Shown: positions 4,971 through 33,628 of the stretch, in pieces
Layout: the number at the start of each line of letters is the position of its first letter
Numbering within the stretch: the first letter of the stretch is position 1
IMG/VR virus record: IMGVR_UViG_3300040801_003999
Span: 1 to 64,000 of that record
Strand: one strand, 5' to 3'
Length of the DNA: 64,000 nucleotides
DNA from: a virus
Program-made: the position numbers and the translations under genes
Notes under the pieces: generated by a model
Databases searched by the model: none
The model's input: the letters and a program-made list of their open reading frames with translations, nothing else
What the model was told of the DNA's origin: nothing

Positions 4971-5204
4971 TCAGCGGGCCTCGTGGTCCGCATTGAGAAA
5001 CATCGCGCCGTCAGAGCGCACGTGAAGCTCCCAGCCGCATCGCTCAGGGTCGTGCGGGTGCTCCATAGATTCGAAGGTCGCGATGATGTCTTTCTTGACA
5101 CCTTGGATGTAGGCCGAGTCGTGAGCGCCCATGACACACATGAGCACAGGCCCTTTCCTGCTCTTGACCTGCTGGGCGATGTCTGCTGCTTTCGTAAAGA
5201 CCAT
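4971..5204 (-). CDS. hypothetical protein
   Basis: 77-aa co-oriented ORF with AGGAGAAAGAGC-ATG. Confidence 0.65.
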   Translation of the reverse strand: MVFTKAADIAQQVKSRKGPVLMCVMGAHDSAYIQGVKKDIIATFESMEHPHDPERCGWELHVRSDGAMFLNADHEAR

Positions 5205-5242
5205 GCTCTTTCTCCTGTGCGTGTTCCCTCATCGACAAGAAC

Positions 5243-5270
5243 ATTATAGCAGCTTGTCGGTCGGTGTCAA
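5243..5270 (-). promoter_or_regulatory. sigma70-like promoter
   Basis: Minus strand TTGACA-16-TATAAT, TGc, A-tract, CTTGTCGATGAGGGAAC box. Confidence 0.7.
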
Positions 5271-5330
5271 GAGGTTTTTTTCAACTTTCTTCGTCGGCCT
5301 TTTTCAACGACCTCTCCCAGCGACAAGAGC

Positions 5331-5358
5331 ATAATAGCACACTGAGTCCTGACGTCAA
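5331..5358 (-). promoter_or_regulatory. sigma70-like promoter (tandem with 5243..5270)
   Basis: Minus strand TTGACG-16-TATTAT, TGc. Confidence 0.55.
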
Positions 5359-9503: not shown

Positions 9504-10756
9504 CAGAGCACCGTCACTCGGTTCACCTTAGTCTGCTTCTCGCCCTCGTACTGATCATGGTCTTTGATGGTCGCCTTGATGCGAGCGCTCTCGCCCACCG
9601 TGAGGTCAGCAGGGCTGCTCGTGAACCATGTCAGGATGTCGCCCTGCTCGGTGACAAACTTCATGAGCGTCGTGAGGCCATAGTATCCCTCGAAGCTCGT
9701 GCAGAATTCAAGAGTAACATCGAACTCCATGCGCTGCTTAGGCTCTCCGACCCACTCAGAGGCACGCTCAGCCATTTCTTCTGCCCGACGCTCAGCCTTG
9801 TGCTCGCGCTCGGCTCGGATGCGTGCAGCAGGGATTGCAGCGGCCACCAGACCCATTTCCTTGTGAGTGATGAACTCTCGCTCAAGCGCAGCGATGAGAT
9901 TGAACTCAAAATTGTTGCTCGGCTTGATGTCTTCAAGAAGAGTGTTGCGAAGGTCAACTGCCTCTGCACGCTTATCGACGATTGCATCCTCGGCCGAGGC
10001 GAAACTTTTAAACTCAGGGAAGCCCTGAAGTTTCCCGTCAGGCTGACGGCGGCCGGCTGCAAGGTTCACAAGCAGGTGTCCGGCAAGGTCGGCCGTAGCA
10101 TTGTCACCAGTGGCCTTAGAACGACTCAGAAAACCACCTTCGATGTCGCAAATAACCAAGCAGGTCGCAAGGAAGTCGACAATGGGCCATGCAGTGGGCA
10201 CAGATGAGCCAAGAGTCTCCCGCTCATCCCAACTTTGGACCAACTCGACGATAGCCGTGGCCTTGCTCGCGAGAGTCGCAATGTCCTTCGGGATAAAGTC
10301 TTTGAGACATGTCGAGCCAACCTGCATGCTGTGGGAGTCCTCGTCACGGATGACGTAGACGTCGTGGCGCTCTCGGTTGTGGCCGCAATGGTCGCAGGCC
10401 GTAACATCACCCTGACGCCACGAGAGAAGCTCGTCCTCGGTCACTTGGTCGTTGACCGCGTGGATGATGGGCGAGGCATGGCTGCAATCAATCTTGGCCA
10501 CCACCTGCCAGCCATCGACGAATGGGGCAACGCCCTCAAGCACGTAGTTAACAAAGGTCTTTCTGACTTTCTTTGGAATGTTGCTGGTGCCGCTCAGGAC
10601 GGTGACCTCGGCGACATATGGCTCGCCGAAACTGACCGATACACCGGGAAGGTCGAGCTTTGCAGCAGTCTTGTTCAGGTCCTTGACCATCTCGTTGAGA
10701 CGTCCGGTCATCCATGCGAGGCATCGGCCTGTGAGCTTGGTAGCTTCGTTGTTCAT
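9503..10756 (-). CDS. hypothetical protein (417 aa) with CxxC...C cluster
   Basis: MNNEATKLTGRC..., CDHCGHNRERHDVYVIRDEDSHSMQVGSTC. Start set to the first ATG after promoter 10795..10822. Confidence 0.7.
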   Translation of the reverse strand: MNNEATKLTGRCLAWMTGRLNEMVKDLNKTAAKLDLPGVSVSFGEPYVAEVTVLSGTSNIPKKVRKTFVNYVLEGVAPFVDGWQVVAKIDCSHASPIIHAVNDQVTEDELLSWRQGDVTACDHCGHNRERHDVYVIRDEDSHSMQVGSTCLKDFIPKDIATLASKATAIVELVQSWDERETLGSSVPTAWPIVDFLATCLVICDIEGGFLSRSKATGDNATADLAGHLLVNLAAGRRQPDGKLQGFPEFKSFASAEDAIVDKRAEAVDLRNTLLEDIKPSNNFEFNLIAALEREFITHKEMGLVAAAIPAARIRAEREHKAERRAEEMAERASEWVGEPKQRMEFDVTLEFCTSFEGYYGLTTLMKFVTEQGDILTWFTSSPADLTVGESARIKATIKDHDQYEGEKQTKVNRVTVL

Positions 10757-25804: not shown

Positions 25805-26235
25805 CGCGCCTCCAAGTTATACATGCCGTTAATAAGCTTAGCCACACTCTTCTTCTTGCCGGACCTACGCAAGTCTGCAACAACCCTTGAAACAGTATTG
25901 TCAACATAGTATTTGAAACTATCATACAAATCAAGGCAGGACAGTTCAGACATGCATCGCCGACAATCAACTGAAATGAATCTATTGAGGTCTGTGGCTG
26001 TTGAGTCAGTGTATGCCAGTGCAATAATGTGGTCAAAAAGCTCTTTTTCCTCATCTTTATTCGAAGAAAAAATGATGAAATCGTCAATGACCATCGGAAC
26101 ATCAGCCTCGACTGATTCGTGGAGAGAAAAGAGACGATACCCCTTCTTTTTTAATTGCTCTCGAATGAACACAGTATTATCAAACATATTAGTCTCCAAT
26201 TGAAACGACGTAATCACCACTCTGCGAAAAACCAA
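25801..26235 (-). CDS. hypothetical protein
   Basis: 144-aa co-oriented ORF. Confidence 0.6.
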   Translation of the reverse strand: MVFRRVVITSFQLETNMFDNTVFIREQLKKKGYRLFSLHESVEADVPMVIDDFIIFSSNKDEEKELFDHIIALAYTDSTATDLNRFISVDCRRCMSELSCLDLYDSFKYYVDNTVSRVVADLRRSGKKKSVAKLINGMYNLEAR

Positions 26236-27451
26236 AGCGGTCCATATCAGTCAAGCCACGTTTGTCGGTACACCACATCAGCTGCACTCGCGATGAGTCT
26301 GGGCGAGGTGCCATCATATCAGTCAAAATAATGTGACCATCGAAGCGTTGACGATCAACAAATTCCACGGGCGCTTCAAAATTAGTGCCGCCACAAGATA
26401 CTCGCTCAGGCTCAATTCTTTGACCCTTTTTCCAGACAAAAACTTTGTCTTCGCGAACTTTACTGTCAAACGGAATAACCGTGAACTCTACATGCTTTGC
26501 AAGCCCAGACAATTCTGCAAAAAATTTGGCCAAAAGCTCATCGTCGACTGACCCAGACTGGTCGATGCTTACCGCAATCTTGGCGACATGGTCTGCTGTA
26601 ATGCCTGCGTACTTGTATGGTGCGCGTCGAGAAATCTTCTTGATAGAGCTTCGACGTTCGCCTCGAACAGAGCGCTGAATAAATCTTCGGAGCGTGGTCC
26701 GCCAATTAATTTTTGGCGTAAAGATCTCCTTGATTTTCCTCTTCGTTTCCGAGGAGATGGAGCCCCATTCAGTAGAGCGCGCGCACTTGTTGTAGGATTC
26801 CCTCAACATCTTCTTGAGCAACTGATCAGCGTAGGATGCATCGCGCGGATCATTGGCCCAATCATGGAAATCAACAAGTCTGCCAGTCGCGCCTGCCTGA
26901 ATCTTTTTGACAAGATCTTTATCCTTCATGATCAAGTGCCAATAGTGCTCCGAAGCCTCTCCGATAGGATAGTCCTTAAACGGACCGGGCGTGCCGGGAA
27001 TCAAAAACTTTGCAGCCTCTTTATCTTCATCTTCGACGCTTTCATCGTAAAGTGAATGAAACACAATGTTCTGTGGAATTTCACTTGCCAGTTTCGAATT
27101 GATGGCGAGGTCGGTAGCGTAATTTGCCACTGCTTGCAAGGAAGCATCGGAACCGGCCAGATTTCGATTTGTCAAATGGCCAAGAATCAAGTGATAGAAT
27201 TCATGCTTGAGCACACCAACAACGTATTTCGGGTCATTTTCATCCAATTCGGCGAAGAAGTATGGATTCCAAATCAACTCAAAACAGGAAGACGTCGGAG
27301 TATATCGGACACAAGCGGTCTTGATATACTCCATCTCTTTCTCACTCGTCGGCCGCTTAGCCACAAAGCTCGAAAACTCCGTGAAAAACGGCTCATCCTT
27401 GAGCGTGCGCTGCAAAAGGTCCTCGAACCTGCGGCGTGACATCTTATTCAT
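26189..27451 (-). CDS. VWA-domain protein with N-terminal HExxH metallopeptidase-like domain
   Basis: LKHEFYHLILGH (HExxH). MIDAS-like VSIDQSGSVDDE. Start uncertain (several ATGs between 27442 and 27463). Confidence 0.7.
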   Translation of the reverse strand: MNKMSRRRFEDLLQRTLKDEPFFTEFSSFVAKRPTSEKEMEYIKTACVRYTPTSSCFELIWNPYFFAELDENDPKYVVGVLKHEFYHLILGHLTNRNLAGSDASLQAVANYATDLAINSKLASEIPQNIVFHSLYDESVEDEDKEAAKFLIPGTPGPFKDYPIGEASEHYWHLIMKDKDLVKKIQAGATGRLVDFHDWANDPRDASYADQLLKKMLRESYNKCARSTEWGSISSETKRKIKEIFTPKINWRTTLRRFIQRSVRGERRSSIKKISRRAPYKYAGITADHVAKIAVSIDQSGSVDDELLAKFFAELSGLAKHVEFTVIPFDSKVREDKVFVWKKGQRIEPERVSCGGTNFEAPVEFVDRQRFDGHIILTDMMAPRPDSSRVQLMWCTDKRGLTDMDRFGFSQSGDYVVSIGD

Positions 27452-28676
27452 CGTCATTGTCATCTTTTTCCTCCTCCTTGAGAGGATCTTCGATTCCAGA
27501 ATCAATAATTCGTTTAGCCATCATGACCATGTAATCTTCGTCAGCTTCCTTCGGGAGAAGTTCGTTGAGGGCCTCTCGAAGCTTGACGAAGTTGTCGTAC
27601 GAGCCATGCAGTCCACTTTCGTCATCCACGTCGATGTGACGCGCCCAGAAATGAGCTTGAATCTCCATGTCGAGAGCATCAACGAATGTCGCAAGATTTT
27701 TAAAGCACTCCTTGGAGTGATTGCTATCCTTCAGAGCGCCCGACTTGTAGAGCCTCATAACCAAACTTCGCTGATGGGGGACAGTCAAGTTGCTGATGTC
27801 TTCAGCCTTGAAGTTGCCCTCAAGAATATCAGAGGCTCCAAGCTGCTGTTCGAGATTAATCATGTATTCTCGAAATTGCAGCGCCACATCATTCCCGACA
27901 AATCCAGTCAAGAGATTAAACGCTTGATTGGCATTGCTCTTATCGCGAAGATTTAGGCCGGACCCCCGAACAACATCCGAGAAACGCTTCCAAGACCGTC
28001 GAGATGGATACACTTGGTCAGGCTGAAATTGTCCTTCGTGCTCCAGCGCACCCAACGACTTTTGAATGAAGTCGACGATAATTGGTTCAACATTGGGCTG
28101 TTCACCTTCAATGAAGCCTTTCTTTTTGTCGTATGACAAGAAGACTTTCCGCTTGGCCCATCGAATCCAATCGTCGAGCGTCGGCTCAACATCCCAGACA
28201 ACCCATCGATCAAGCTCAGCAGGGTCCATGTCAGCAACATTATAGTCGACACCAGTATTGACTGCGCCGATAATACGAGTGCTTTCATGAAGAGACTTGC
28301 CGGCGAGACCATGAGAATCAGTAAGTTGCATCAGGGCCTGTTTGACCTGCGTCGAAGCTCGATTTAGCTCGTCGAGGACCAAAAGACATGGCGATTCCTG
28401 ACACTTCCTAAACCAACTCGGCGGCTTAAACACAGTCACGTCATCTTCGAGAAAGGGCAGGCCCAACAAATCGCCCTCGTTCATCTGAGATGCCCGAAGC
28501 TCAACGACTTTGAGGTCGGGAACATCAAGGCCCATGAATGCGCCCAGACCCTGAGCGATTTCATAAGCACTCTCGGACTTACCGATACCGTGCCGTCCGC
28601 GAATAAGGACGGGATACCCTTCCACCAGAACCGGCTTGGCAATAGAAACAAAAGTTTGAAGATCGATAGATGCCAT
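27444..28676 (-). CDS. MoxR-like AAA+ ATPase
   Basis: Walker A GRHGIGKSE, Walker B LLVLDELNRA. Immediately upstream of the VWA partner. Confidence 0.75.
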   Translation of the reverse strand: MASIDLQTFVSIAKPVLVEGYPVLIRGRHGIGKSESAYEIAQGLGAFMGLDVPDLKVVELRASQMNEGDLLGLPFLEDDVTVFKPPSWFRKCQESPCLLVLDELNRASTQVKQALMQLTDSHGLAGKSLHESTRIIGAVNTGVDYNVADMDPAELDRWVVWDVEPTLDDWIRWAKRKVFLSYDKKKGFIEGEQPNVEPIIVDFIQKSLGALEHEGQFQPDQVYPSRRSWKRFSDVVRGSGLNLRDKSNANQAFNLLTGFVGNDVALQFREYMINLEQQLGASDILEGNFKAEDISNLTVPHQRSLVMRLYKSGALKDSNHSKECFKNLATFVDALDMEIQAHFWARHIDVDDESGLHGSYDNFVKLREALNELLPKEADEDYMVMMAKRIIDSGIEDPLKEEEKDDNDDE

Positions 28677-29635: not shown

Positions 29636-29924
29636 CGTCGGCCTCCAGCGCCTTGCGGCAGGCGTGGTGAAAATGAAGCTGGTTGTAGTCGACAGCTCGC
29701 CTGTCCCTCGCAGCCCATTCGACCACCTCCCTAGGCAGGATGACGGAGACGTGGCCCTCGGGCGGGGTCAGCTCCGCGACGACCCGCTCCAGCCGCTGGC
29801 GCTCCGCCTTTTCGTCGTCCCAGTGTTTGCGGTTGGTGGCGAGCCACTTCTCGGCCTCTTCGGCGCGCTCTCGCTGTTTCATCGCCTCGGCGTGCCAGTT
29901 TTGAATTTTCGTTTCGTCGCTCAT
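29628..29924 (-). CDS. hypothetical protein (GC-rich island)
   Basis: MSDETKIQNWHAEAMKQRERAEEAEKWLATNRKHWDDEKAERQRLE... The start abuts the RNA ligase stop. Confidence 0.55.
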   Translation of the reverse strand: MSDETKIQNWHAEAMKQRERAEEAEKWLATNRKHWDDEKAERQRLERVVAELTPPEGHVSVILPREVVEWAARDRRAVDYNQLHFHHACRKALEADDE

Positions 29925-32299
29925 TATGAAATGTCCTCCAAATCGACATATTCATCGCTGTTCTTGGCGATACCTTCCAGTTCACAAAACCAGAAGCCCT
30001 TGTATTTGTGTGTGCCGCCCATCAAATGATGGTCGACCGTGATACAAACACCCTCGCGAATATGTGTGCTGTCCAGTTTCGACGATCCCTGCGAATACTG
30101 CTCAACAAGTTCGAGGAGCGAGTCTTCATCCCCGTCATAGACCAGTGTATCATAGTGAGGGACATGGCGCAAGCCTAATTCGTTACATCGAGCCATAACC
30201 TTTGGCCAACTAAGATCGACAGAATCGCCATCTTCATTTGTTTGTGTAATTCTGTACACATAAATATCGTATGGCACAGCTTGGCCGCGATCTGTTCCAT
30301 ATTTATAGACCATTTCATCGCCATATTTTTTCTTTAACTGTTTGTCCGTCACTTTGTGTGGGGCCATGATTGGTGTCTTCTTGTCAGTGAAACCAACAAT
30401 CTCGTAATAGAGCGTCTCTCCTTTCTTCAAACGTAGGCGATCATGGATTTCAAATCGAAATCCCATACCAGAATAGTAACCTTGATCGACCGACTGATCA
30501 GGATCATAGGTTACTCGTCGAGAACCAGAGACTTTTCGCCATTCTCTCTTCGGCTTAAAAACTTCTTTACGGAAGAAGTTGTTGATTGCTCGTTTGATTG
30601 CTGGGAGGTCGTCTTCTACTTGGACGTATCCCGTCCTACCGGAATTGTGTACTAGAATTCCATCAGCGAAAAAATTACTCGTTTCTGTTGTTAGATCATA
30701 TTTTGTCGGTCCTACGTAGGCCTCCGATGCCCTTTTTCGATGAACCGATAGAACCTCTTGAGTCATGGTAATAGGTCTCATAGAATGGACTTCAGAAACA
30801 TTCCAAGTCGAGGCCGCTCGATATCTTTCAGGTAACTTATACTTCATATGGTCACACACATATGGAGCAATAAGAACGAAAAAACGATCTGCGTCATCTG
30901 CGTTCAATCTAATACGAGAATACCCGTTGTTGTCTTCGTAATAAACAGACTCAATCCCGAATTTTCGAAAGCCCTCCTGAAGAACTTTACAATCCTCCTC
31001 AGAAAAATTACACAAAGCGAAATTTGCTCGGTCTTCCTGACTCTCGTGTGTCGCAAGTGAACCATCATCCATGTACAAAAATGCCATAGAAATCGGACCC
31101 AACTCTTTGGCAACCCACGGCGGGATAATCTTTTTAGAATCTTCCGGATAAAAATCCGAAAATCTGTTAAAAATATGATAAGACGAAAGCGTACTCCGAG
31201 CAATCATTGTAGTGCCATAGCCGCTAGTTCTTTCATTTCGCGTTGATGATGAAAGGTCCCCTAGGCATTTTGCAGTATAGTCAACATATTTTTCATCCTT
31301 TTTTCTGTGAGCATATTGAATCGAGGCGGAATCATAATCATAGCGATGCAGATACCCATCACCCAGCAATTTTCCAAGCATCACCTGCTCTTGGTAATAA
31401 GTCGGTCCTCGATCAAATTTTTCGACAAGAACTTTAGTGCCGGGTTTGAGATTCTGCGCTTCAGAATATTCATTTATCTCAGGACACCAGACTAAATGTT
31501 CTGGTGTTGTGTAGATAGACCCAAAATGGCTTCCGGACAAGCCCTTTCGAGAAAATTTGATCTTAACCCAATCCCCTTCATTTTGACCATGATTCCATGT
31601 CTTGGTCACTTGTGAAGGTTGAAGAGTGAAACTTTCTATATCATAACCAAGAACATAATCTCCCTCCTTAACTTGTGTAATTCTTTTCTTAGATCCGTCC
31701 ATCATCGTGATCATGGAGTTCGATGATAAACACGTTCCATGTAATTTCTCCGTAATATGCAACACAGCCCCTTTAGGGATTGCTGATGCAGTATAGCGGA
31801 GCTTCGGGGTGTCGAAGTGCTTCTTAAACATTGGAATTTCTTTTTTCTTTTTCTTTTGTCCCTGCTTTTGGGCTCGCTCCATTGCTCGCTTGGTTGCCTC
31901 GGAGACATACTTGCGACACACTTCTTTGCCGTTCAGGGCATCGAACTCATCGCCCGCCTCCAGTGTCGACAGATCGACACCAGTCCATCTCAGATACGTC
32001 AGAGGAACCCAAAAGCCTTCTGACTTCTGTCCTCGGAATGGTTGCGCCCGAACTCGACGATTCTCTTCGAAGTATCCGCCCATAGACTCGCCAGTCTTCG
32101 GGTCTTTGCGATATAGGTTATTGGCCATGCACATTTCATGCGACAGCTGGCCGTCGCACGGAAAATACACTCCAAGCTGGCCTGATTCAGTCTCTAAGCC
32201 AACAACGACCTGATAGCCTGATGCAACACCAAGCTGAACCCGGTCCGCATTTGGGTGAGGTCGTGTAGAAATGTGACATACTTTTGCTTTATAGCTCAT
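29924..32299 (-). CDS. ATP-dependent RNA ligase (N-terminal OB/tRNA-binding-like domain plus nucleotidyltransferase), interrupted by an intein
   Basis: Motif I ITEKLHGT followed by C...HN|S. The extein is about 428 aa. The N-terminus (HPNADRVQLGVASGYQVVVG...) resembles the OB domain of DRB0094/Rnl5-type ligases. Confidence 0.65.
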   Translation of the reverse strand: MSYKAKVCHISTRPHPNADRVQLGVASGYQVVVGLETESGQLGVYFPCDGQLSHEMCMANNLYRKDPKTGESMGGYFEENRRVRAQPFRGQKSEGFWVPLTYLRWTGVDLSTLEAGDEFDALNGKEVCRKYVSEATKRAMERAQKQGQKKKKKEIPMFKKHFDTPKLRYTASAIPKGAVLHITEKLHGTCLSSNSMITMMDGSKKRITQVKEGDYVLGYDIESFTLQPSQVTKTWNHGQNEGDWVKIKFSRKGLSGSHFGSIYTTPEHLVWCPEINEYSEAQNLKPGTKVLVEKFDRGPTYYQEQVMLGKLLGDGYLHRYDYDSASIQYAHRKKDEKYVDYTAKCLGDLSSSTRNERTSGYGTTMIARSTLSSYHIFNRFSDFYPEDSKKIIPPWVAKELGPISMAFLYMDDGSLATHESQEDRANFALCNFSEEDCKVLQEGFRKFGIESVYYEDNNGYSRIRLNADDADRFFVLIAPYVCDHMKYKLPERYRAASTWNVSEVHSMRPITMTQEVLSVHRKRASEAYVGPTKYDLTTETSNFFADGILVHNSGRTGYVQVEDDLPAIKRAINNFFRKEVFKPKREWRKVSGSRRVTYDPDQSVDQGYYSGMGFRFEIHDRLRLKKGETLYYEIVGFTDKKTPIMAPHKVTDKQLKKKYGDEMVYKYGTDRGQAVPYDIYVYRITQTNEDGDSVDLSWPKVMARCNELGLRHVPHYDTLVYDGDEDSLLELVEQYSQGSSKLDSTHIREGVCITVDHHLMGGTHKYKGFWFCELEGIAKNSDEYVDLEDIS
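30644..31732 (-). mobile_element. intein with LAGLIDADG homing endonuclease (aa 190-552 of the ligase ORF)
   Basis: Starts CLSSNSMITMMDG and ends GILVHN, with +1 Ser. Motifs LGKLLGDGYL and AFLYMDDGSL. Inserted directly after the KxHG lysine motif. Confidence 0.75.
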
Positions 32300-32714: not shown

Positions 32715-32815
32715 TTTTGATCCTTTTTCTAAGCGTTAAAATTATTTGTGACATGCTTTTGCTTTCGTTGTTTAAGTACCCTCGGTGGGATTCGAACCCA
32801 CACTGAACGGATTTT

Positions 32816-33505
32816 CGTCACACTACAGTTTTCACTGCCAACTTTCGCTGTTTGTGCGCTGGACTTTCTCTTCACCTTACCTGTTGGCTTAGGTGCGATC
32901 CGTAAAGTCTCTACACTTGCCCGATAACTATTCGTTATCTGCTAGCTCGGGATTGCCATCACCATTACGCGTTAAGGTTTCCCCGACTTGGGATCGTCCA
33001 CTTATAGGGTTTCCCTTATAAGGCTCATCTTTAATAGTCATATACGATTTTTTAATTTTACTTACAGAAAGGCGCTTCATTCGTTCATTTTGGACTTCTG
33101 CGCCGTATTTACCAGCGCATGTCCTAGAACAAAAAGGGCCAGCCTTTCCTTGTTTGCGATTCCCGGCCGCTTTATACAACTTCGAACCTTTAAGTTCAAA
33201 GCTGTCTGAACACAGCGGACACTCAAATCTTTGGGTTTTTAATCTTTTAACGTCCAAGGAGACGTGCTCTTTTCTAGAAAGAACTTGAAGATTCGCAAAA
33301 TCATTATTTGTAAAATCGCCGTCAATATGATCAACTGTTTCATCATCTTCAAGATACCTGCCAAGTTCGCACTCAACAAGGTATTTCGGGTAAGAAACGG
33401 TTTTTCTACTCTTGTCAGGATAGACGATTATCACATGCTTTCGCCCGTCCTGTCTTTCGTAGGGACCATATATCTTGCACTTATCGTAAATTTCTACCTC
33501 TGTTA
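32816..33505 (-). mobile_element. group I-like intron in the anticodon loop
   Basis: 690 nt. Follows U34 and ends in G before A35. Several GAAA-capped hairpins (CTACGAAAGAC, GGGCGAAAGC, CAGCGAAAGTTG). Carries an HNH ORF. Confidence 0.55.
32928..33434 (-). CDS. HNH homing endonuclease (intron-encoded)
   Basis: VDHIDGDFTNNDFANLQVLSRKEH HNH motif. C-terminal CPLC...CSRTC zinc cluster. GTG start. Confidence 0.8.
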   Translation of the reverse strand: MIIVYPDKSRKTVSYPKYLVECELGRYLEDDETVDHIDGDFTNNDFANLQVLSRKEHVSLDVKRLKTQRFECPLCSDSFELKGSKLYKAAGNRKQGKAGPFCSRTCAGKYGAEVQNERMKRLSVSKIKKSYMTIKDEPYKGNPISGRSQVGETLTRNGDGNPELADNE

Positions 33506-33628
33506 AAGTCCGCTGCCTCTGCCAGTTGGGCTACGAGGGCATACCTTTTTACTTACAGTGATGCGGGATTATTTACCATATCGACCGCCTCGTCCAGATG
33601 AACAACCCCATCAGATTTAATAGATTTC

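Follow-up and report, generated by a model that had tools for sequence, protein, structure and literature searches.

A probable mobile group I intron with an HNH endonuclease reading frame in a short-arm tRNA-Leu(UAA) gene of a large phage

The split tRNA gene and its splice junction

The stretch of DNA studied here, hereafter the window, is 64,000 nucleotides (nt) long and corresponds to positions 1–64,000 of the IMG/VR virus record IMGVR_UViG_3300040801_003999, which belongs to a large double-stranded DNA phage. On its minus strand, which carries all features of the locus described below, lies a tRNA gene with anticodon UAA that is split between U34 and A35 by an insert of 690 nt (33505..32816). 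The insert can be assigned to the IC3 tRNA-intron family of group I introns and contains an open reading frame (ORF) for a putative HNH homing endonuclease. The 5′ exon (33506..33540, tRNA positions 1–34) provides the 5′ strand of the acceptor stem, the D-arm AGCCCAACUGGCAGAGGC, the 5′ strand of the anticodon stem and C32, U33 and U34. The 3′ exon (32777..32815, positions 35–73) starts with A35, A36, A37 and A38 and continues with the 3′ strand of the anticodon stem, a 5-nt variable loop (UCAGU), the T-arm, the 3′ acceptor strand and the discriminator A73, and does not encode CCA. An original prediction for this locus had given both exon strings exactly as found at these positions, 690 nt apart, and had joined them into a 74-nt cloverleaf with anticodon UAA. 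ARAGORN agrees with this and calls the joined exons tRNA-Leu(taa), with anticodon UAA and a 5-nt variable loop.

ARAGORN in its default mode missed the locus and reported only tRNAs for Ile-UAU, Met-CAU and Glu-CUC in the window, and Rfam at the gathering threshold reported no intron there. Detection needed the intron mode of ARAGORN and the E-value mode of Rfam. The former found the split gene with the junction shifted by one base and called it tRNA-Phe(GAA), so that homologs had to be compared to fix the junction exactly.

The exact 5′-exon string has zero matches in IMG/VR; searches with the 3′ exon and with core motifs were productive instead. Five IMG/VR contigs share the 3′-exon string. 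One of them (L001) is cut off, and in the other four (L002, L003, L004 and L005) the junction region is uninterrupted and reads …GGACTTAAAATCCGTTCAGT…, with anticodon UAA and a short variable loop. Of these, L002, L004 and L005 have the sequence GGACTTAAAATCC and the same 5-nt variable loop as the window tRNA. The copy in L003 (358-416, minus strand), found in a 301-kb viral contig, is a short-arm tRNA(UAA) of 59 nt without a D-arm that still scores 52 bits with the Rfam tRNA model. A metagenome scan for G|AAAATCYGTNNAGTNNGGGTTCGA gave 33 loci, ~28 of which are short-arm tRNA(UAA) genes split at U34|A35. In these ~28 metagenomic loci and in 6 viral loci, all inserts at U34|A35 are preceded by ACUU and end in G. 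Dozens of viral and metagenomic contigs carry homologs of the window tRNA, with or without an intron, and the arrangement goes far beyond what chance would produce.

Since the intronless homologs read CUUAAAA and all inserts follow ACUU and end in G, the junction is placed at CUU|…G|AAAA. This is the junction first proposed (CTT|AAAA), with an insert that follows U34 and terminates in G32816. The junction one base further 5′, which would give tRNA-Phe(GAA), was rejected on the terminal omega-G, the intronless homologs and the invariant GAG of the internal guide described below. The insertion point U34|A35 is of the Leu.3Ug type, CUU/…g/AAAA in a tRNA with anticodon UAA, as defined by Williams (2020), and the earlier identification of 34|35 with the classical tRNA-Leu(UAA) site holds. 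Around this site, all hosts have GACTT^AAAATC without variation.

The long variable arm (class II shape) of bacterial-type tRNA-Leu is absent from the spliced sequence. Its class I shape had been regarded as an oddity that left the amino-acid identity unclear. The 5-nt variable loop is indeed there, but the shape is a common trait of phage tRNA-Leu and not an anomaly. The spliced sequence matches 275 GenBank phage records, which carry the annotation tRNA-Leu in the records examined, and is 86.5% identical over 74/74 nt to a tRNA-Leu of Bacillus phage P59. It has the features by which we define short-arm phage tRNA-Leu: a length of 72–77 nt, the D-arm UAGCCCAA(N1-3)GG(C/U)AGAGGC, an NNAGU variable loop, A73 and a Leu anticodon. 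Bacillus phage P59 (L070) has Leu-UAA and Leu-UAG genes with the same D-arm, G1·U72 and A73, while Mycobacterium phage Bonray (L071) has short Leu-GAG and Leu-CAA genes beside a long-arm Leu-CAG.

Short-arm tRNA-Leu genes (72–77 nt) with anticodons UAA, UAG, GAG and CAA are common in cultured phages, and G1·U72 is frequent in this family. Those of P59 and of Mycobacterium Bixzunavirus (Leu-GAG and Leu-CAA), as well as the short-arm tRNA-Leu of animal mitochondria, are like the window tRNA in their class I shape of 72–77 nt, Leu anticodon, A73 and Leu-type D-arm. The phage genes are uninterrupted, unlike the window gene, and the mitochondrial tRNAs are unrelated to it in sequence. Our search found no description of short-arm phage tRNA-Leu in the literature covered.

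Leucyl-tRNA synthetase (LeuRS) of E. coli requires A73, A14, A15-U48, G18G19 and A20a, while the anticodon and the long arm are dispensable (PMC9976931). By inspection, A73, A14, A15-U48, G18G19 and a D-loop of the A20a type are all present in the spliced sequence. The tRNA is therefore likely to have leucine identity, which answers the earlier doubt.

Intron fold and family membership

The Rfam group I intron model (RF00028) matches 32844..33045 over its whole length with 42.2 bits (E 3.8e-9 in a 1.15-kb search), which is below its gathering score. ORF-free relatives score 36–62 bits with the same model, so this general model is weak for the subfamily. A family covariance model, R1, was built on 18 relatives that included neither the window nor its ortholog L032. 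R1 has a sole significant match in the window, at 32809..33029 (model positions 1–207/207), with 155.7 bits and E 1.4e-41, a score in the mid-range for the family. Together with the covariation of the full fold, these matches bear out the original suggestion that 32816..33505 is a group I intron, and a P3–P9 core with the P3/P7 pseudoknot could be modelled. A core-motif scan of viral contigs gave 24 loci, nearly all of them tRNA genes split by introns of 190–700 nt; Met/Ile-CAU, Leu-UAA, Arg-UCU and other tRNAs are affected. The window locus is one member of this large family.

In P1, C32, U33 and U34 of the exon (33508..33506) pair with the internal guide sequence (IGS) GAG (33026..33024), so that a U34·G wobble marks the 5′ splice site. 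The assignment follows from the invariance of the GAG, which is found 1–3 nt upstream of P2 in 16/16 aligned members and in the model alignment. Between the P1 strands is an L1 loop of ~480 nt that contains the ORF. P2 (33001..33022) is the hairpin CUUAUAAGG-GAAA-CCCUAUAAG with the GAAA tetraloop L2 (33013..33010), and was found by RNAalifold, by pair counts, with double changes at 5/5 counted pairs, and in the single-sequence fold. The P3 5′ strand (CGAUCC, 32991..32996) pairs perfectly with the 3′ strand (GGAUCG, 32896..32901), which forms the pseudoknot with P7; the anchored duplex and pair counts support this helix, which reads CAAUCC/GGGUUG in L032. P4 (UCGGGG/UCCCGA), J4/5 (AAA), P5 (CCUUAAC…GUGAUGG) and J5/4 (CAA) occupy 32947..32986 and were seen with Rfam, RNAalifold, R1, pair counts and folding. 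The P4–P5 stretch also matches tRNA introns of Klebsiella jumbo phages.

P6 (GC-A-GAUAAC/GUUAUC-GG-GC, 32919..32942) is present in the single-sequence fold, and per-sequence folds have a hairpin of differing sequence at this position in 16/16 members. The stop codon of the ORF is at the junction of L6 and the P6 3′ strand. The guanosine-binding helix P7 consists of GACUU (32905..32909), within the conserved GUAGAGACU motif, and AAGUC (32862..32866). It was identified by RNAalifold and pair counts and is 100% paired across the family, with a fifth pair that covaries between U-A and A-U. P8 (CACC-UAAG-CC-AACA-GG-UAA-GGUG, 32873..32895) was identified by RNAalifold, pair counts and folding. Its CCUAAG…UAAGG is what we take to resemble the 11-nt GAAA-tetraloop receptor (CCUAAG/UAUGG).

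The 3′ domain (32819..32858) has a closing helix P9.0 (CGCAC/GUGUG) around the hairpins CAGC-GAAA-GUUG and CAGU-GAAA-ACUG. Their loops at 32846..32843 and 32833..32830, along with L2, account for the GAAA-capped hairpins that had been noticed in the insert. The domain is seen in the fold, and relatives share its architecture with covarying closing helices (ACCAC/GUGGU, ACUAC/GUAGU and CCCGC/GCGGG). The last intron nucleotide is the omega-G (32816), and ~30/~30 family introns examined end in G before AAAAUC.

An unguided RNAalifold run on 16 members returned the anticodon stem, P2, P4, P5, P7, P8 and a P9 hairpin, with compensatory changes at 25/35 pairs. In an anchored per-sequence analysis, P3, P6 and the P9.0 closing helix with its internal hairpins were formed in 16/16 members, each time with a different sequence. 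To count the full fold, 40 distinct sequences were aligned to the family model and compared with a hand-written P2–P9 structure that includes the P3/P7 pseudoknot. Here 93.2% of the cells are paired compared to 71.0% in shuffled data (0/500 shuffles reach the observed value), changes on both sides occur at 30/37 pairs, and the covariation score is 0.456 versus ≤0.079 with the partners slid; as the alignment was fitted to part of the structure, these numbers are somewhat inflated. P3 is outside the fitted model, and there 6/6 pairs covary. The length of P6 varies, which makes column covariation impossible, and this helix was therefore shown per sequence. In alignment A4, a gap in the window row is misplaced by one base within the P3 5′ strand, and P3 was taken from the anchored duplex. 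Folded alone by energy, the window core gives the same helices, with z = -3.2 against shuffles.

The ortholog L032 comes from an SRA assembly unrelated to the window; its split tRNA, intron and HNH ORF (72% HNH identity) are arranged alike, and it has diverged ~20–25% from the window. Compared with the window, the exons of L032 show double compensatory changes at the acceptor pairs 2:71, 4:69 and 5:68 and at the T-stem pair 49:65, and its intron shows compensatory or wobble changes in P2, P3, P6 and P9. Such a pattern is left by a tRNA and a ribozyme that both remain under selection, and not by a disrupted pseudogene. It contradicts the alternative given in the original prediction, a tRNA pseudogene disrupted by an HNH insertion.

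Several other loci came up in these searches. L037 and L041 have family introns of 171 nt without P9 hairpins (R1 116 bits), which is unusually small for group I. A second family intron, of 181 nt, is located at 9841-10021 (minus strand) of L012, a viral contig that also bears an HNH-containing tRNA-Leu intron. The metagenome contigs L044, L052 and L054 have a short-arm tRNA(UAA) with a 34-nt hairpin insert, UUUCACGCAACGGAUUGGUAACUGUCCGUUGAAG, at U34|A35, again ending in G. This is far too short for a group I ribozyme and may be a remnant or an insert that is removed in another way. In L075, ARAGORN in intron mode calls two adjacent tRNA-like genes (470-602 and 614-741) with anticodon-loop inserts of ~55 nt. 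The two have UCUUCCUUCUAA in common and could be either false calls or inserts of a different kind. At 5153-5347, L031 partly matches GOLLD RNA with 45.5 bits, against a gathering score of 150, and the end of the locus truncates this match.

The HNH reading frame, its lineage and the source phage

The ORF in L1 had been described as an HNH gene of 168 codons, from GTG 33434 to the stop codon at 32930..32928. This frame exists and matches Pfam HNH_3 (PF13392) with 31.7 bits (curated cutoff 24.8) and PHROG 14913 with E 1e-25, but its extent needs revision. Homologs begin with M(V)YE.CKIYGPY, and their Met aligns with an ATT codon of both the window and L032, behind an (A/G)GAGG Shine-Dalgarno sequence. 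In the 19 codons upstream of the GTG, the window and L032 differ at 12 synonymous versus 5 nonsynonymous positions. Given this Met alignment and the synonymous excess, the ORF most likely starts at ATT 33491 and has 187 codons up to the stop UAG (32928..33491). The Shine-Dalgarno-like GAGG (33497..33500; GGAGG in L032) is found 5 nt upstream of the ATT. The second GAG that it provides could pair locally with the exon CUU and might then have a regulatory role.

Codons 1–154 comprise the HNH_3 nuclease domain and a C-terminal zinc module with four cysteines. Over these codons synonymous change between the window and L032 is saturated (pS 0.82) and pN is 0.18, as seen under purifying selection. 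The last 32 aligned codons have the reversed pattern (pS 0.05, pN 0.12). This tail, …DEPYKGNPISGRSQVGETLTRNGDGNPELADNE (codons 155–187), is the translation of the IGS, P2, P3, P4, P5 and P6, with the stop codon in P6, and judging from these ratios it is constrained as RNA and not as a protein under selection. Residues D54, H55, N67, C91, C94, C121 and C125 are invariant in 49 homologs, and H76 is conserved in at least 90%. The AF2 model has a pLDDT of 96, and in BFVD it matches phage HNH and homing endonucleases, with the HNH protein of Salmonella phage SSE121 as the best match (E 2e-15, TM 0.80).

The translated tail was also found in distant homologs, revealing that these are intron-encoded too. 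Homologs with 49–54% identity are located in the same L1 position of U34|A35 introns. Intron-borne copies interrupt short-arm tRNA(UAA) genes in L072, L073 and L076 and a canonical long-arm tRNA-Leu(UAA) gene in L075, and L077 has a further intron-encoded copy. Free-standing homologs adjoin an intact tRNA-Leu gene in L033, L079, L080, L081, L083, L084 and L085, and another (L078) is ~500 nt away from one. The cultured Salmonella phage PVP-SE1 and Klebsiella phage KP2025 likewise have a free-standing homolog adjoining tRNA-Leu. In PVP-SE1 (NC_016071, 66007-66387; L086 1501-1881) this is an unannotated ORF ~50% identical to the window HNH, directly upstream of tRNA-Leu(UAA), and KP2025 is similar.

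A profile scan of the genomes of 185,579 species gave only 9 HNH loci, nearly all in contigs of metagenome-assembled genomes with tRNA clusters, and revealed no bona fide bacterial chromosomal copies. By this distribution the HNH lineage is essentially viral. Its occurrence both within introns and free-standing beside tRNA-Leu suggests homing, and the pattern fits a homing endonuclease that would be specific for the DNA of the tRNA-Leu anticodon arm.

In the source phage, minus-strand genes code for a DNA polymerase, a ribonucleotide reductase, GroEL, a DnaB-like helicase and a UvsX-like recombinase. A near-identical contig, Ga0450791_116970, is present in JGI 3300040802. A nucleotide search with the whole locus revealed no close relative among GenBank phages, and gave only a 45-nt P4–P5 stretch in Klebsiella jumbo phages and a short ORF stretch in the uncultured phage contig MT835544. 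Next to the locus, an intein that contains Hint and LAGLIDADG_2 domains splits an RNA-ligase-like protein of 791 aa (29924..32299, minus strand; PF09414 and PF21189 OB-fold). A second HNH endonuclease of 438 aa (phrog_1314) is encoded at 26189..27505 (minus strand). The window is thus rich in selfish elements. UUA and UUG make up 34% of the Leu codons, which gives no special rationale for the tRNA from codon usage. A promoter scan gave a promoter-like site at 33596..33568 with a weak consensus match only.

Proposed mechanism, alternatives and meaning

We consider it highly probable that the locus is a mobile IC3 group I intron with an HNH ORF in a phage short-arm tRNA-Leu(UAA) gene. The sequence anatomy, the family membership, the covariation, the purifying selection on the nuclease domain and the association of its lineage with tRNA-Leu are what the analysis shows. 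From these we infer splicing, leucine charging, cleavage with its specificity, and homing as follows. The gene would be transcribed as a precursor of ~764 nt, in which the anticodon stem would hold the two exons together. Exon C32-U33-U34 would pair with the guide GAG just upstream of P2 into a short P1 with the U34·G wobble, and the P2–P9 core with its P3/P7 pseudoknot would fold and bind guanosine. Two transesterifications would then free an intron ending in G32816 and join CUU to AAAA, so that the ligated exon junction is predicted to read GGACUUAAAAUCC. The resulting 74-nt tRNA would read UUA and UUG and would probably be charged by the host LeuRS.

The L1 loop, for its part, would express the 187-codon HNH protein from the weak ATT codon. 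By analogy with other intron-borne HNH enzymes, the protein is predicted to act on tRNA-Leu(UAA) alleles without an intron in co-infecting phages, making a nick or a cut around GACTT^AAAATC within a predicted target GCCCTCG…GGACTTAAAATCCGT…. Recombinational repair would then copy the intron and its ORF into the cut allele (homing).

A number of observations weigh against this interpretation. The Rfam score of 42.2 bits is below the 50-bit gathering score, and the receptor-like motif in P8 is non-canonical, with UAAGG instead of UAUGG. P1 has just 3 bp and P10 no more than 1 bp, with ~480 nt between the P1 strands, so recognition of the 5′ splice site must lean on the anticodon stem. For the HNH protein, neither a PDB sequence search nor Foldseek against PDB gave a match, and profile similarity to I-HmuI (1U3E), the only solved intron HNH, is not significant (E 0.11). 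No ATG, GTG or TTG is found at the family start position of the ORF. As the ORF is translated through the IGS and on to P6, ribosomes could disrupt folding, or the protein could be poorly expressed. The target-site specificity is deduced from gene neighbourhood only, and the intron of the source phage is known only as a sequence.

Some of these points would also fit a decayed element, i.e., a tRNA pseudogene inactivated by a non-splicing intron/HNH cassette, with a selfish or dying endonuclease gene. The low Rfam score, the 3-bp P1 with a P10 of about 1 bp, the non-canonical ATT start of an ORF that overlaps the core, and the existence of degenerate relatives (the 34-nt insert of L044/L052/L054 and the D-arm-less L003) could all be read in this way. 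However, all core helices of the window intron are intact and stable, its 155.7 bits with R1 are ordinary for the family, and the 3-bp GAG(C) guide is common among relatives. In addition, L032 keeps every tRNA and intron helix by compensatory changes in spite of its divergence, and comparison with it shows a nuclease domain under purifying selection. We find decay very unlikely.

Two alternatives concern how the exons are recognized. The same intron could use a local hairpin, CUU-UAACA-GAG(G), as P1, with the GAG of the Shine-Dalgarno region (33500..33498) as guide and the ORF between P1 and P2. A GAG 5 nt after the 5′ splice site is indeed seen in the window, L032, L072 and L073, but it is missing from L075, and in all ORF-free relatives the GAG directly upstream of P2 is the sole guide. 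Both the window and L032 retain that GAG, which does not vary in the alignment, while the local one is explained as a ribosome-binding site; there is a small chance that the local hairpin is the true P1. The junction one base further 5′ (CU|…C|GAAAA) would give a mature tRNA-Phe(GAA), in agreement with the ARAGORN intron-mode call and with the class I shape of tRNA-Phe, and a putative guide GGUCC at ~33468 could form a 5-bp P1 with GGACU, including a U33·G wobble. Such an intron would end in C and not in G, whereas ~30/~30 relatives follow ACUU and end in G, and every intronless homolog reads CUUAAAA. The gene has a Leu-type D-arm, and GGUCC is within the coding region and not placed like a guide, in contrast to the invariant GAG beside P2. 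This junction can hardly be the right one.

The intron may also be as described while the spliced short-arm tRNA is charged by another synthetase or is non-decoding, e.g., a decoy for host defence nucleases that target tRNAs. A standard review gives tRNA-Leu a long arm everywhere apart from animal mitochondria, such an arm is absent here, charging is deduced from sequence alone, and G1·U72 is unusual and, in the family, frequent. On the other hand, the tRNA has every determinant of E. coli LeuRS, an enzyme that does not need the long arm. Long-arm viral tRNA-Leu(UAA) genes, for example in L020 and L030, have an identical D-loop, AACUGGCAGA. Hosts of the same intron and HNH include both long-arm and short-arm genes, and cultured phages have short-arm genes with four Leu anticodons beside long-arm ones or in their place. 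A role other than leucine decoding therefore seems unlikely.

With a group I intron in tRNA-Leu(UAA) as the preferred reading, several known systems can be compared. The classical bacterial and plastid tRNA intron is also of the Leu.3Ug type (CUU/a…g/AAAA, IC3; Williams, 2020), and shares with the window intron the host gene with anticodon UAA, the U34|A35 site, U-1, the omega-G, and the core motifs and helices. It is bacterial or plastid, whereas the window intron is phage-encoded, has an HNH ORF in the P1 loop and is found in a tRNA without the long variable arm. The classical intron is about 250 nt long and, to our knowledge, has no ORF. According to the title of a 1993 report by Zaug et al., as listed in PMC3984707, the Anabaena tRNA-Leu intron is said to depend on the anticodon stem, and such a dependence is also likely for the window intron.

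A tRNA intron with an endonuclease is known from a bacterium, where the enzyme, I-Ssp6803I, is of the PD-(D/E)XK type and not an HNH protein. It is encoded in the group I intron of tRNA-fMet in Synechocystis PCC 6803 (Bonocora and Shub, 2001, as cited in PMC3984707), i.e., in a different tRNA, at a different insertion position and in a bacterium rather than a virus. Closer in enzyme type are I-HmuI, I-BasI and I-PfoP3I from phage DNA polymerase genes, which also combine a phage group I intron with an HNH ORF and have the HNH_3-type catalytic motif. Nicking-type homing is established for these enzymes and likely for the window HNH. Their introns are IA-type and interrupt protein-coding genes, while the window HNH has a C-terminal four-cysteine zinc module and a tRNA gene as its predicted target. 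Finally, SegB, from the tRNA gene cluster of T4 (PMC2330249), is a phage homing endonuclease tied to tRNA genes, placed like the free-standing HNH relatives found here. SegB is a GIY-YIG enzyme and free-standing only, in contrast to the intron-borne HNH of the window.

The 5,292 tRNA introns mapped by Williams (2020) are from bacterial genomes only. According to a review from 2014 on group I introns in bacteria (PMC3984707), every phage intron known until then interrupted a protein-coding gene, although phages have numerous tRNA genes. Neither a survey of 224 jumbo phages from 2021 nor an intron study in Bastillevirinae from 2025 mentions tRNA-gene introns, and our search found no report of group I introns in phage tRNA genes in the literature covered. 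IC3 introns in phage tRNA genes, together with their dedicated HNH, seem to form a widespread but undescribed class.

Unannotated introns of the family are also present in GenBank records of cultured and other phages. In Klebsiella phage Muenster (MT708547, ~302.83–303.14 kb; L006 ~1413–1730), a group I intron scoring 104 bits with Rfam and 84 bits with the family model interrupts an unannotated tRNA(CAU) after CAU, in a gap of the annotated tRNA cluster. The same intron is found in phiKp_21, KP13-7 and RCIP0023. In Agrobacterium phage Atu_ph07 (NC_042013, ~112.89–113.25 kb; L088 657–1018) an unannotated long-arm tRNA-Leu(UAA) is split at 34|35 by a 277-nt family intron (161.7 bits), the 3′ part of which is annotated as the hypothetical protein FDI40_gp154. 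The 735-kb huge phage LR756501 (L089 661–951) has a tRNA-Leu(UAA) family intron of 185 bits. Standard annotation misses such split phage tRNA genes, as default ARAGORN and gathering-threshold Rfam did at the window locus, so phage tRNA repertoires are undercounted and intron pieces are annotated as hypothetical proteins, as in Atu_ph07. The cultured carriers Atu_ph07 and Muenster make the predictions testable, with Atu_ph07 as an experimental system.

Whether the Leu intron spreads vertically or horizontally has long been argued, and a mobility gene was not previously known for it. In large phages this intron type is common and often bears an HNH gene, whose lineage is tied to tRNA-Leu. A possible, and so far tentative, picture is that phage tRNA genes are a large overlooked reservoir of IC3 introns, in which the tRNA-Leu(UAA) intron, the 'ancient' one of textbooks, would be mobile as DNA through a dedicated tRNA-Leu HNH endonuclease. 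That enzyme may have moved from a free-standing position beside tRNA-Leu into the P1 loop, and the short-arm tRNA-Leu, often the host of the intron, could be an adaptation against host nucleases directed at class II tRNAs. In this picture, phages as vectors could plausibly account for the sporadic distribution of the intron in bacteria, and the class as a whole bears on how the classic tRNA-Leu intron moves.

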